Source: an uncultured Streptococcus sp.
GTDB taxonomy: Bacteria > Bacillota > Bacilli > Lactobacillales > Streptococcaceae
Length of the DNA stretch: 64,000 bases
Assembly (NCBI RefSeq): GCF_963516515.1
Contig: NZ_CAUQCJ010000003.1
Coordinates: 1,722-65,721, forward strand
Reading direction: 5' to 3'
Shown here: piece by piece, positions 3,002 through 7,613 of the stretch
Layout of the letters: each line of letters opens with the position of its first letter
Numbering within the stretch: position 1 is the stretch's first letter
The notes under the pieces: model-generated
Seen by the model: the letters and a program-made list of their open reading frames with translations, nothing else
Database searches by the model: none
What the model was told of the DNA's origin: nothing
Program-made: the position numbers and the translations under genes

Positions 3002-3036
3002 AAAAGACTAGCAGTTTTTGTCTGCTAGTCTTTTTT
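3002..3036. terminator. Bidirectional intrinsic terminator
   Basis: AAAAGACTAGCAG...CTGCTAGTCTTTT between convergent genes. Confidence 0.85.
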
Positions 3037-3074: not shown

Positions 3075-4319
3075 TTAGTTACTTGCGCCAGATGTAGCGT
3101 CTGCACCACCACCGTGGCCTCCAGCCTCACCTGCATCAGAAGCTCCAGATGTAGCATCTGCATCACCGTGACCATGTCCGCCAGCAGGAGCTGCAGCATT
3201 TCCACCAACTAGACGTTGACCAGTTGTATTGAGGTACCAATCAAGCCATGGTTGGAAGTTGAAGACTATTTCATTGATACCAGCGTATGATCCATCAGGA
3301 TAGTACATAGCTTGATAGTTGTGAGTATTGATAACCCCTGCAGGAGATCCAGGAACGATTGTACGAACATATTCTTGATCACCATTACGCAGTACACCGA
3401 CAACCCATTCAACATTTTTCATACGTCCACCGGGAAGTGAGTTATGGACAGTTGAGAGACGGTTACCAGATTGAGATGGTACACGTTTAGCAAACATGGT
3501 GTTTGGATCTTGGTGAACATTATTGTAGTATAAGAATTGGTTGTTATCATCTGCATAGGTCAACTCAAATGGCATTGCTTTCAAGAACATATCGATTTGG
3601 TTAACAGTTAAGATACCATGGTCTAGTTTGACATAGGTATCACCTGAAACCGCACCAGTAATTTCAGCAACTTTTTCAACCCATTCTGGATCATCGGGAT
3701 CAACTTCTGTGATTGTGGTAGCAATTGGTCTGCCACAATCCAAATCTTCTGGTTCAATTGGTTTTGGTTTTTTCAATTTTGAAACAACTCCTACATATTT
3801 TACAAAATTATCCAAGCAAGTTTCGAGGAATTTAACTGTTCCGTCATTTGTAATATTCCCATCAACATCAAAGGCTTCCTTAGCTTTACCAAGAAGGAAT
3901 TCGTTTCCAGGAAGTGTATAGGCATTGACACCTGGAGCGTCAAGAATCTTACGAAGGTGAACTTGGGCACGAGAAGTACCTTGGTCGTAGTAAGAAGCTC
4001 CCACAATCATGACTGGTTTGTTTTCAAATGGATGAACTTCGTATGAAAGCCATTCAAGAACAGATTTAAGAGAAGCTGAGATTGTGTGGTTGTGCTCAGG
4101 AGTAGCGATAATGACACCATCAGCACGTGTAATTCTGTTATACAAGAGACGCAATTGGAAGCTTTCATCCCATTTCTCGTCTTGGTTAAACATTGGAACT
4201 TCGTCAATTTCAAGAACTTCTAATTCAAATTTGAGTTTGAAGTGACGACGGATGAATTCCAAGAGTTTACGGTTATATGATTGATCGTAGTTTGATCCTA
4301 CAAGTCCAACAAATTTCAT
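3075..4319 (-). CDS. NAD(P)H-dependent FMN reductase-fold protein with PAS-like domain and C-terminal tail carrying two DATSGAS motifs
   Basis: N-terminal GLVGS...ATPEHNHTISASLK flavodoxin-like fold; PAS-like segment LKAMPFELTYADDNNQFLYYN; Gly/His/Ala-rich tail with DATSGAS at 3138-3158 and 3081-3101. Confidence 0.85.
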   Translation of the reverse strand: MKFVGLVGSNYDQSYNRKLLEFIRRHFKLKFELEVLEIDEVPMFNQDEKWDESFQLRLLYNRITRADGVIIATPEHNHTISASLKSVLEWLSYEVHPFENKPVMIVGASYYDQGTSRAQVHLRKILDAPGVNAYTLPGNEFLLGKAKEAFDVDGNITNDGTVKFLETCLDNFVKYVGVVSKLKKPKPIEPEDLDCGRPIATTITEVDPDDPEWVEKVAEITGAVSGDTYVKLDHGILTVNQIDMFLKAMPFELTYADDNNQFLYYNNVHQDPNTMFAKRVPSQSGNRLSTVHNSLPGGRMKNVEWVVGVLRNGDQEYVRTIVPGSPAGVINTHNYQAMYYPDGSYAGINEIVFNFQPWLDWYLNTTGQRLVGGNAAAPAGGHGHGDADATSGASDAGEAGGHGGGADATSGASN

Positions 4320-4337
4320 TCTTTTTGGTCTCCTATC

Positions 4338-4943
4338 TTACAAATTTTCCCAGTCAAAGTCTTCAGCATCTTTGCGAAGTAGTTCTTGTGCGTTACGCAA
4401 TTTTTCCGTGATTTTTACAAAGATACGGAAGTCGTCAAAAGTAGCATCCAGTTTTTTGATAACATCAAGATCTACTAGGTCTCCACTTGGGTTAAAGGCT
4501 TGAAGAGAGTGTGAAAGCAAGAATTCATCTGGAAGGACACTTGCTTTAATTTCTGGTGCGTTTAAGATTTGACGAAGTTGTAATTGGGCGCGTGATGAAC
4601 CAAGTGTACCGTAAGAAGCACCTGTAATCATGATTGGTTTGTTCAAAAGTGGGTAAATACCATATGACAACCAAGCAAGAGCGCTCATCAAAACAGCTGG
4701 GATAGAGTGGTCATACTCAGGAGTACCGATAATAACACCATCTGCCTCTTCAATTTTAGCAGCGATTTCTAGAATTTCAGCAGGTACTTGCTTGTCAGCT
4801 GGTTTATTGAAGACAGGAATGTCTTTAATTTCAACAAGTTCAATTTCAGCTTTTTCAGCAAAGTGTTTTTGCATGTATTGAAGCAATTGACGGTTTGTAG
4901 AACGTTTTGAATTTGTTCCAACAATAGCAATAAGTTTTAACAT
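4338..4943 (-). CDS. NAD(P)H-dependent FMN reductase
   Basis: IAIVGTN...GTPEYDHSIPAVL...GASYGTLGSSRAQ; paralog of the adjacent gene's N-terminal domain. Confidence 0.88.
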   Translation of the reverse strand: MLKLIAIVGTNSKRSTNRQLLQYMQKHFAEKAEIELVEIKDIPVFNKPADKQVPAEILEIAAKIEEADGVIIGTPEYDHSIPAVLMSALAWLSYGIYPLLNKPIMITGASYGTLGSSRAQLQLRQILNAPEIKASVLPDEFLLSHSLQAFNPSGDLVDLDVIKKLDATFDDFRIFVKITEKLRNAQELLRKDAEDFDWENL

Positions 4944-5002
4944 GAGATTTCCTTTCTCTTTTTACATAATACGATTTTAAAACTCCATTGAAACATCTGT
5001 TT

Positions 5003-5926
5003 CTATAGAGTAGGAATTCCTGAAGAACAGCTTAGGTGACCTTCCTTATCGATGAGGATAGCTTCGATGCCCTCTAAACTTTCGACTTGCCAAAGGATAG
5101 AAGCAGGTCTTTCTCCAAAGAGTCGAGTTGTCCAGATTTCACCATCAACTGATTTATCAGAGATGATTGTTAGACTAGCTAGTTCCGTTTCAACAGGATA
5201 TCCTGTTTGGCTGTCAAAAATATGATGGTAATCTTTTCCATCGACAGTCAGGTGACGTTCATAAATGCCTGAAGTCACGACAGATTGATTGACAACAGGG
5301 ATGGTCATTAAGTGATTTCCCCTAGGATTGGCTGGGTCTTGAATCCCGATTTGCCAAGGCTGATTCCCTCTTGCCTGATTTTTTCCAATGGTCAGGATAT
5401 TCCCTCCCAGATTGATTAAGGCAGAAGTCACTCCCTCTTCTCTAAGAAATTGGGCAACTTTATCCGCACTATAACCCTTGGCTAAACAACCAAGATCGAT
5501 CTTCATTCCTTTCTGTTTCAAGAACACAGTGGAAGTAGAAGAATCTAACTCGATATACTGAGGATTGATTAAAGGTAGCACAGATTCAATTTCTTGAGGT
5601 TGTGCAACTTTGGCATCTGAAAAACCGATACGCCAGGTTTGAATCAAGGGACCAATGCTGATGTTGAGATGACTAGAGGGCGCTAGGCTATGCTCTAAAC
5701 CAAGTGAAATCAGCTCAAACAGATCCGGATGAACCTTGACGGGGGCTATTCCAGCTTGATGATTGATTTCCATCAACTCAGATTCTTGGCTATTGGCATT
5801 GAAGCGGTATTCGAGATCTCTGAGTAAATCAAAGGATTTCTGGAGCAAGATATCTGCTCGCTCATCCACTAATGAAATAGTGATAGTGGTTCCCATTAGG
5901 CGTTCAGAATGTGAACTAAGAGGCAA
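5003..5926 (-). CDS. apbE: FAD:protein FMN transferase (ApbE family), no signal peptide
   Basis: LMGT start, IDLGCLAKGY, NLGGN, VTSGIYER, HHIFD..TGYP motifs; TTG start with AAGGAG RBS. Confidence 0.92.
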   Translation of the reverse strand: MPLSSHSERLMGTTITISLVDERADILLQKSFDLLRDLEYRFNANSQESELMEINHQAGIAPVKVHPDLFELISLGLEHSLAPSSHLNISIGPLIQTWRIGFSDAKVAQPQEIESVLPLINPQYIELDSSTSTVFLKQKGMKIDLGCLAKGYSADKVAQFLREEGVTSALINLGGNILTIGKNQARGNQPWQIGIQDPANPRGNHLMTIPVVNQSVVTSGIYERHLTVDGKDYHHIFDSQTGYPVETELASLTIISDKSVDGEIWTTRLFGERPASILWQVESLEGIEAILIDKEGHLSCSSGIPTL

Positions 5927-6027
5927 GCTACCAACTCCTTTCTCTTATGAAAAGAAGGTTGAAATATAGTAAATTTATGAAAAATGAACCCCTTACATTT
6001 TCTTTCCATGATACTAGCATACCATAA

Positions 6028-6041
6028 AGTCAGCGTTTTCA
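6028..6041 (-). promoter_or_regulatory. Putative CcpA cre site in the apbE operon promoter
   Basis: Minus strand TGAAAACGCTGACT resembles the cre consensus. Confidence 0.5.
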
Positions 6042-6166
6042 CAAATAAAATTTGTAAAGATGTCAAGAAATATGCTCACGGAATGAAGAAAAATTGCAAG
6101 AATCCGTGTTAAGATACAGATTGTTTACAATTTTTTACAAAAAAATCGGGAAAATTAGTTAAACTC

Positions 6167-6195
6167 TTGTAAACGCTAACAGTAAATGTTATACT
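6167..6195 (+). promoter_or_regulatory. nox promoter (TTGTAA-N17-TATACT, extended -10) overlapped by a cre site (6168-6181)
   Basis: TTGTAA 6167-6172, TGTTATACT ending 6195; TGTAAACGCTAACA matches cre. Confidence 0.7.
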
Positions 6196-6233: not shown

Positions 6234-7613
6234 ATGAGTAAAATCGTTGTAGTTGGTGCTAACCACGCTGGTACAGCATGTATTAATACTATGTTGGATA
6301 ATTTTGGTAATGAGAACGAAATCGTTGTATTTGACCAAAACTCTAACATCTCTTTCCTAGGTTGCGGAATGGCCCTTTGGATTGGTGAACAAATTGACGG
6401 TGCTGAAGGCTTGTTCTATTCTGATAAAGAAAAATTGGAAGCTAAAGGTGCTAAAGTTTACATGAACTCACCAGTTCTTTCAATCGACTATGATAACAAA
6501 GTAGTTACAGCAGAAGTTGAAGGGAAAGAGCACAAAGAATCATACGAGAAATTGATTTTCGCTACAGGTTCTACACCAATCTTGCCACCAATCGAAGGTG
6601 TTGAAATTGTTAAAGGAAACCGCGAATTTAAAGCAACTCTTGAAAATGTACAATTCGTGAAATTGTACCAAAACGCTGAAGAAGTTATCAATAAACTTGC
6701 TGATAAGAGCCAACACCTCGACCGTATCGCCGTTGTTGGTGGTGGTTACATCGGTGTTGAACTTGCTGAAGCCTTTGAACGTCTTGGAAAAGAAGTTGTC
6801 CTTGTTGATATCGTTGATACTGTTTTGAACGGTTACTATGACAAAGACTTCACACAAATGATGGCGAAGAACTTGGAAGACCACAACATCCGTTTGGCTC
6901 TTGGTCAAACTGTTAAAGCAATCGAAGGTGACGGTAAAGTTGAACGCTTGATTACTGATAAAGAAACTTTCGATGTGGATATGGTTATCCTTGCGGTTGG
7001 TTTCCGTCCAAACACAGCCCTTGCTGATGGAAAGATTGAACTCTTCCGCAACGGTGCCTTCCTTGTAGATAAGAAACAAGAAACTTCACTTCCTGGTGTA
7101 TTTGCCGTTGGTGACTGTGCGACTGTTTATGACAATGCACGTAAAGACACAAGCTACATAGCTCTTGCTTCAAATGCTGTTCGTACTGGTATCGTTGGTG
7201 CCTACAATGCTTGTGGCCATGAATTGGAAGGAATCGGTGTGCAAGGATCAAATGGTATCTCAATTTACGGACTTCACATGGTTTCAACTGGTTTGACTCT
7301 TGAAAAGGCAAAAGCTGCTGGTTACAATGCAAGTGAAACAGGCTTTAACGATTTACAAAAACCAGAATTCATGAAACATGACAACCATGAAGTAGCGATT
7401 AAGATTGTCTTTGACAAAGGTAGCCGTGAAATTCTTGGTGCCCAAATGGTTTCACATGATATTGCAATCAGCATGGGAATCCATATGTTCTCACTTGCTA
7501 TCCAAGAACATGTAACAATTGATAAATTGGCTTTGACAGATCTATTCTTCTTGCCACACTTCAACAAGCCATACAACTACATCACAATGGCTGCCCTTAC
7601 AGCTGAAAAATAA
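6234..7613 (+). CDS. nox: H2O-forming NADH oxidase
   Basis: 459 aa; GANHAG FAD motif, SFLGCG redox cysteine, GGGYIG NADH motif. Confidence 0.96.

Follow-up and report, generated by a model that had tools for sequence, protein, structure and literature searches.

The DNA analysed here (the window) is a stretch of 64,000 nucleotides from an uncultured Streptococcus sp. (positions 1,722 to 65,721 of contig NZ_CAUQCJ010000003.1, assembly GCF_963516515.1). Its minus strand carries a three-gene operon encoding ApbE, a flavin adenine dinucleotide (FAD):protein flavin mononucleotide (FMN) transferase without a leader, a small reductase subunit (A), and a large subunit (B) in which an FMN_red domain and a PAS module are followed by a tail with two DATSGAS motifs. 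The best overall explanation, to which we assign a probability of about 0.5, is that ApbE would flavinylate the tail of B in the cytoplasm and that the tail FMN would be a tethered substrate of a reductase oxidizing the reduced form of nicotinamide adenine dinucleotide (NADH). The parts of such a system are already described in other bacteria, and neither the kind of system nor the chemistry is new. What is added here is the motif-bearing tail of a protein of the LjPAS type, named after a protein of Lactobacillus johnsonii, and a clade of leaderless ApbE proteins with a glutamate in the catalytic triad.

The operon and the motif tail of its large subunit

The arrangement of the three genes given by the first-pass annotation agrees with the open reading frames and with Pfam, and a ribosome site resembling AAGGA/AGGAG precedes each gene. 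Lengths are in amino acids (aa), and model confidence is the predicted local distance difference test (pLDDT).

5003..5926, minus strand: apbE, FAD:protein FMN transferase without leader, 307 aa, TTG start (open reading frame call and Pfam)
4338..4943, minus strand: A, small FMN_red subunit, 201 aa, without motif (open reading frame call and Pfam)
3075..4319, minus strand: B, large subunit, 414 aa, FMN_red, PAS module and motif tail (open reading frame call and Pfam)
3768..4319, minus strand: FMN_red domain of B, residues 1-184 (Pfam, AlphaFold, Foldseek)
3204..3761, minus strand: PAS module of B, residues 187-372, PAS_10 core 242-355 (Pfam, Foldseek, column conservation)
3078..3203, minus strand: Gly/Ala/His tail of B, residues 373-414, predicted disordered (pLDDT < 50)
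3138..3158, minus strand: DATSGAS motif 1, with Ser394 (codon 3138-3140) as predicted acceptor (motif match)
3081..3101, minus strand: DATSGAS motif 2, with Ser413 (codon 3081-3083), the penultimate residue, as predicted acceptor (motif match)

The two DATSGAS copies thus lie where they had first been located, the second at the C-terminal end of B. They are the only strict Dxx[ST]GA[ST] motifs among the 2433 open frames of at least 100 aa in the genome, in which composition alone predicts about 2.4 such motifs anywhere. Both stand beside the only ApbE found in the genome by BLAST, and only 2 of 100000 shuffles of the B tail produced two motifs, so the pair is not a product of chance. Four codons differ synonymously between the copies.

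Within B, Pfam assigns residues 1-147 to the FMN_red domain (PF03358, E 9e-34) and residues 242-355 to PAS_10, and finds neither FMN_bind (PF04205) nor FAD_binding_2 (PF00890). An AlphaFold model of B based on a 70-sequence alignment (mean pLDDT 84) has residues 1-372 folded and residues 373-414 below a pLDDT of 50. Foldseek relates the N-terminal domain to 1RTT/ChrR, and the closest structure to the PAS module is 2QKP, a protein of unknown function. In mean column identity (0.70-0.74) the PAS module is on a par with the reductase; across B-type loci His292 is invariant, and His333 (97%) and Met275 are near-invariant. A second PAS_10 protein of this genome, a frame of about 460 aa with a C-terminal PAS domain (G000:C26:20592-21974), has no motif.

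Conservation across Lactobacillales

Among 1355 database homologues of B, 119 of the best 120 have at least one strict motif. For an order-wide view, 100 regions from genome searches were hand-picked to span genera, most close streptococci being left out, and 75 of them contain a B-type gene; these loci are kin, and counts taken from them are not independent. The A gene adjoins B in 75/75. A strict motif occurs in 61 of the 75 B proteins, and a relaxed form that we widened to Dxx[ST][GSA]A[ST] in 74. All 207 relaxed motifs are C-terminal to the PAS domain, the small subunits have none (0/75), and shuffled tails yield 1.9. Each B protein has between 0 and 7 relaxed motifs, most having 2-4, and the last is situated 1-5 residues from the C-terminus. 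Spacers between motifs vary freely (9-69 aa), with D, A and S/T fixed. The conservation of the motifs, which the first-pass annotation had left to be checked, extends well beyond this genome, while its wording of a doubly modified tail does not hold as a fixed number: cytoplasmic flavinylation is well supported by the conservation and by published relatives, the count of sites is not.

The operon is matched at E <= 1e-30 in 60 of 64 Streptococcus genomes, and the cassette is present on 108 plasmid records, mainly of Enterococcus and Lactococcus. On the L. lactis plasmid NC_009435.1 (L111) the three genes are beside a Crp/Fnr regulator and nrdEF; on the E. faecium plasmid NZ_CP011282.1 (L112) they lie between IS1216 copies together with a helix-turn-helix regulator.

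Several homologues depart from the common layout. One has a duplicated PAS-tail unit with 7 relaxed motifs (L149:1464-3680), one a long tail with 6 strict motifs (L097:4347-5951), and two have tandem PAS modules without a motif tail (L178, L179). In L089:4293-5669 the tail repeats D-x-x-A-S-A-S in place of the motif. Motif 2 reads DATAGAS in five sequences (P0041, P0044, P0046, P0059, P0062), two of them labelled S. pneumoniae, where it may still act as acceptor. A PAS module with one DATSGAT follows a lipoprotein-like leader in L177:429-1298 and is possibly an exported form, and in two proteins (L182:1156-2496, L183:1156-2538) a pair of FMN_bind domains is combined with PAS_10 and with a motif in the tail.

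A leaderless ApbE with a glutamate in the triad

The 307-aa protein matches PF02424 (E 5e-77), and its best PDB match is 7ESA (E 1e-76). The TTG start is preceded, six codons upstream, by an in-frame stop; no leader can be encoded there, and the candidate of an upstream leader was ruled out on this ground. By hydropathy, no lipobox cysteine or signal-like hydrophobic stretch is present at the N-termini of ApbE, A or B, which bears out the earlier description of all three as proteins without export signals. The same is true of the wider set: a hydrophobic leader was found in 0/59 operon ApbEs versus 8/8 lipoprotein-type ApbEs, chosen by eye as a positive control. The survey of neighbouring signal-less genes proposed at the outset gave an apbE within about 4.5 kb of the B gene in 59/75 loci. 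For 15 of the remaining 16 loci the genome was searched, and each of these genomes has a leaderless ApbE elsewhere.

Ser219, Arg224 and His235 (FmnB Ser257, Arg262 and His273) are invariant in 59/59 operon ApbEs, and all 59 have a glutamate, Glu263 here, in place of the triad aspartate (FmnB Asp301, Vc Asp285). The same glutamate occurs in 16/16 related leaderless ApbEs, which adjoin Crd-like FMN_bind proteins or Lactococcus tailed FMN_red genes. The change is conservative, and flavin-transferase activity of this clade is putative.

Strict dependence of leaderless apbE on B was considered and rejected: of five streptococci without a B match, four keep a full leaderless ApbE and one a fragment, so that the gene is not tied to B alone. 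One of the four has a Crd-like client. In the other three (among L276-L279) no client was seen in the 1.5-kb flanks, and other cytoplasmic ApbE substrates may therefore exist.

The reductase pair and its published relatives

A and B are 41% identical. The N-terminal domain of B is 52-60% identical to Firmicute proteins of about 810 aa composed of an FMN_red, an FMN_bind and an FAD_binding_2 domain, and these Crd-like proteins also have a small FMN_red neighbour. In a quick IQ-TREE analysis of 75 FMN_red domains, A groups with the Crd-like small subunits and the N-terminal domain of B with the Crd-like large subunits (Shimodaira-Hasegawa-like approximate likelihood ratio test, SH-aLRT, 98 and 92), the Crd-like pairs in the tree being those of Firmicutes. 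The PAS-less single-gene tailed FMN_red proteins of Lactococcus (L139-L146, L155-L157) form a separate clade (SH-aLRT 100). The L. johnsonii-type FMN_red pair matches B (45%) and A (45%) reciprocally and has long branches in the tree. The heteromeric reductase suggested earlier is thus well supported by adjacency, tree and published relatives, and by analogy with these it is highly probable that A and B form an NADH-oxidizing heterodimer. One Crd-like query against this 89%-complete genome matched FMN_red domains only and no Crd-like acceptor enzyme.

Three described systems are close to the operon. Huang 2024 (PMC11334425) reported apbE-linked FMN_red proteins with an unstructured C-terminal extension bearing one to two motifs, and Ser-dependent flavinylation of two Lactococcus proteins (WP_021723379.1 of L. 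lactis and WP_205872264.1 of L. taiwanensis). Homodimer models are presented there, that of L. lactis with the sites near the FMN pockets; the accessible text mentions no PAS domain or second subunit and assigns no function. The streptococcal operon shares with this class the PF03358 domain, the disordered C-terminal extension with motifs (two DATSGAS here) and an apbE within five genes (here the same operon), whereas B is PAS-fused and paired with A. Lactococcus holds both types, the PAS-less single genes and the B type (L150-L153), and in L. lactis the plasmid-borne B is WP_011915228.1, which is not among the accessions tested; for those two, neither the paper's text nor its Table S1 lists a length. 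Within the class of tailed FMN_red proteins the operon is a PAS-fused heterodimeric variant, or simply an ordinary member if Huang's proteins are of the B type.

Valladares 2015 described FRedA/B (NfrAB) of L. johnsonii as a heterodimer, obligate and provided with two FMN sites, that oxidizes NADH only, reduces FMN/FAD (Km for FMN 20 µM), leaves quinones unreduced and yields H2O2; it was purified under-loaded, at 0.58 FMN per dimer (Kd 2 µM) (PMC4500961). The paper names the PAS_10 fusions Lp2732 and EF1227, and its available text contains no mention of ApbE or covalent flavin (PMC4500961). Two adjacent paralogous FMN_red genes and a PAS_10 partner are common to both systems; the PAS domain is a separate gene in L. 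johnsonii and fused in streptococcal B.

CrdAB of Vibrio ruber (Bertsova et al.) is an NADH:cinnamate reductase with a cytoplasmic FMN_red heterodimer and an ApbE-attached FMN, and the covalent FMN on the Ser of DALSGAS relays electrons from the dimer to the FAD domain (bioRxiv 10.1101/2023.03.04.531086). A small FMN_red protein, a large subunit opening with FMN_red and an adjacent apbE are shared features. In CrdAB a folded FMN_bind domain contains the covalent site and an FAD_binding_2 domain reduces the acceptor, whereas B has its site in a disordered tail and lacks both domains.

With the extracytosolic clients NqrC, RnfG and PplA/FmnB the operon shares the motif and the transferase family. 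Unlike these, it shows no signal or lipobox, no FMN_bind domain and no membrane partner, and unlike FmnB-type enzymes its ApbE has Glu for the triad Asp. According to a review, cytosolic ApbEs exist, seven residues suffice and terminal tags work best (PMC12052999); the survey of Meheust 2021 left signal-less genes out (PMC8238504). The view that the mechanism had not been characterised holds for the operon itself as far as the open-access literature goes, which yielded no functional study of it but only entries in transcriptome and mutant tables; the class is known from the three systems above.

A split system in Lactobacillus

The system is divided in five genomes belonging to a single Lactobacillus genus, which encode a tail-less FMN_red pair and, at a distance of about 100 kb, a free PAS protein. 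Three genes downstream of the pair, past MupG-family and tyrosine-phosphatase-family genes, comes a leaderless apbE, a layout read in three of the five genomes. The free PAS_10 protein (L162-L166) has three strict motifs in four of the five, the fifth being seemingly frameshifted at the tail. Where the gene is split, the tail thus stays with the PAS module, away from the reductase. In 56 related loci (L199-L254) at least one strict motif is found in 54 and three in 35, two being unreadable by script, and free PAS-tail proteins without a reductase domain are common. About 10 kb from the first PAS protein, a second, shorter PAS_10-like protein has one end motif, DAESGAS (L167-L171).

L. johnsonii ATCC 33200 has a protein of 244 aa and 28.0 kDa with 100% identity to the free protein and 37% identity to residues 191-413 of B. 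Species, size, domain and homology to the fusion suggest that this 28-kDa protein is probably LjPAS. If so, LjPAS would probably be an unrecognised flavoprotein that was assayed without its flavins, because it was made in E. coli and ApbE is unmentioned in the available text of the 2015 paper. No paper linking ApbE to LjPAS was found in the open-access literature.

Proposed mechanism and alternative explanations

In the mechanism that we propose, the leaderless ApbE would attach FMN to Ser394 and Ser413 of the B tail inside the cell, as the tested Lactococcus tails suggest. A and B would form an obligate heterodimer with two non-covalent FMN that oxidizes NADH and reduces added FMN, in the manner of FRedA/B and Crd. 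The tail FMN would then swing into the reductase and be reduced there. Its re-oxidation would take place away from the reductase, with O2 as the default oxidant, and would give superoxide/H2O2 and regenerate NAD+; the PAS module may be a scaffold or gate for the tail. By analogy, flavinylation of the tail is very likely. A role of the tail FMN as tethered substrate has slightly better than even odds and is favoured because FRedA/B turns over added FMN and because the covalent FMN of Crd is the immediate acceptor of the dimer. O2 as the main acceptor in vivo is somewhat less likely than not.

Several observations weigh against this mechanism or parts of it. No strict motif is present in 14/75 tails and no relaxed motif in 1/75, and the acceptor is Ser in 197/207 relaxed motifs, although ApbE prefers Thr over Ser, according to the review (PMC12052999). 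FmnB and 8/8 lipoprotein ApbEs keep the triad Asp that is Glu263 here, and the full leaderless ApbE of four B-less streptococci shows that the enzyme has more than this one client to account for it. The Methods of Huang 2024 refer to L. monocytogenes ApbE in lysate, the Results to a 'cognate' enzyme (PMC11334425). In vitro, LjPAS slowed the formation of active FRedA/B instead of speeding it (PMC4500961). The Crd dimer is switched off by O2, which speaks against O2 as the intended acceptor (bioRxiv 10.1101/2023.03.04.531086). Finally, with Nox, SpxB and lumazine synthase encoded in the genome, there is no obvious shortage of an oxidase or of free flavin, and flavin scarcity as a reason for tethering is unsupported.

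The tail FMNs could instead fill the two FMN pockets of the dimer as prosthetic groups and thereby prevent flavin loss, which is the reading of Huang 2024. The position of the sites in the L. lactis model agrees with this, as do the two motifs of B for two pockets and the under-loading of purified FRedA/B. We nevertheless regard it as unlikely: a motif number of mostly 2-4 and up to 7 is unmatched to two pockets, a folded PAS module of 190 aa is predicted between tail and reductase, and FRedA/B and Crd are active with non-covalent FMN. A carrier fits better than a fixed prosthetic group because the motif number varies and because, in split genes, it is the PAS module that keeps the tail. It is less probable again that PAS module and flavinylated tail read the redox or oxygen state and limit H2O2 by throttling the reductase in its assembly or activity, instead of carrying bulk electron flux. 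PAS folds are established sensor folds, the Crd dimer is redox-regulated, free PAS-tail proteins occur, and LjPAS, besides slowing FRedA/B formation, changed with aeration; but the LjPAS assayed was likely flavin-free, the two-hybrid experiment gave no LjPAS effect (PMC4500961), and several flavins per tail exceed the need of a sensor.

The tail might also pass electrons to a specific partner or to a ligand held by the PAS module (metal, haem or small molecule), as the CrdB FMN does to its FAD domain. [quoted passage not shown] We judge such a dedicated donor improbable, as no acceptor gene was seen with the cassette in two annotated plasmids, a comparison short of a systematic search, the nearest PAS structure has no known function and FRedA/B left quinones unreduced. 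That the motifs are not flavinylated at all, and either carry another modification or stand beside a Glu-type ApbE acting only as FAD hydrolase, appears very improbable. The Asp to Glu change would allow it, but the motifs are conserved and linked to apbE, and the same Glu is found in 16/16 ApbEs beside Crd-like FMN_bind or Lactococcus tailed FMN_red genes.

The tethered-substrate mechanism can be extended to the split system. PAS_10 with a disordered multi-FMN tail would then serve lactic acid bacteria as a portable module that carries electrons in the cytoplasm; streptococci and enterococci would have it fused to the NADH reductase, the L. johnsonii group as a free protein, with LjPAS as studied being the unflavinylated form and the form loaded by the leaderless ApbE the physiological flavin substrate or switch of NfrAB. 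We consider this reading possible but less likely than not.

Transcription and genomic context

Three further features flank the operon.

3002..3034, minus strand: terminator-like hairpin, 13 bp, at the operon end, facing the convergent DUF896 gene
6028..6041, minus strand: catabolite-responsive element (cre)-like site for CcpA, upstream of apbE, with 1 mismatch to the consensus
6234..7613, plus strand: nox (NF046103), H2O-forming NADH oxidase, divergent neighbour

Stranded RNA reads of a relative, from one run (X24) and mostly 90-99% alike, give even, unbroken coverage of 3113-6019 at a depth of 40-84, on the strand opposite nox; nox itself is about ten times deeper in the same run, and a gap lies at 6020-6190. 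X24 was the sole RNA set used, X21 giving 14 reads and the RNA contigs X2 and X6 carrying no strand or level information. The coverage is consistent with the operon being one transcript, short of proof.

A role in redox balance had been suggested on the basis of the divergence from nox. The divergence is present here and in 11/20 closer relatives, but nox is found in the flanks of 0/75 mostly more distant loci, and its linkage was rejected as functional evidence for being local to the lineage. The apbE-nox intergenic region contains cre-like sites at 6028-6041 and 6168-6181, the window holding three such places with at most 1 mismatch. At this threshold a site occurs in 18/74 upstream regions, mostly of close relatives, versus 1.7% of shuffles. 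No Rex box was found near the operon at up to 3 mismatches to the consensus. SPD1300-01, SPD_1301/1302 and SMU.1088-1090 are probably orthologues of the operon, an assignment that fits their annotation. SMU.1088-1090 are listed among the genes changed in an S. mutans ccpA mutant (PMC3610829), and SPD1300-01 apbE/azr and SPD_1301/1302 appear as table entries in pneumococcal transcriptomes (PMC11559097, PMC5327383, PMC8546594).

Significance for lactic acid bacteria

The operon is near-universal in the sampled streptococci and widespread in Lactobacillales. If its tail is flavinylated, B would be a common cytoplasmic flavoprotein that holds several covalent FMNs on a disordered arm and has been overlooked under generic names. 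The link to LjPAS bears on the supply or control of the reductase that is the main source of H2O2 in lactobacilli of the L. johnsonii group. Should the carrier-module reading be true, loaded LjPAS would set the H2O2 output in lactobacilli, and the module would contribute to NAD+ recycling in oral streptococci.

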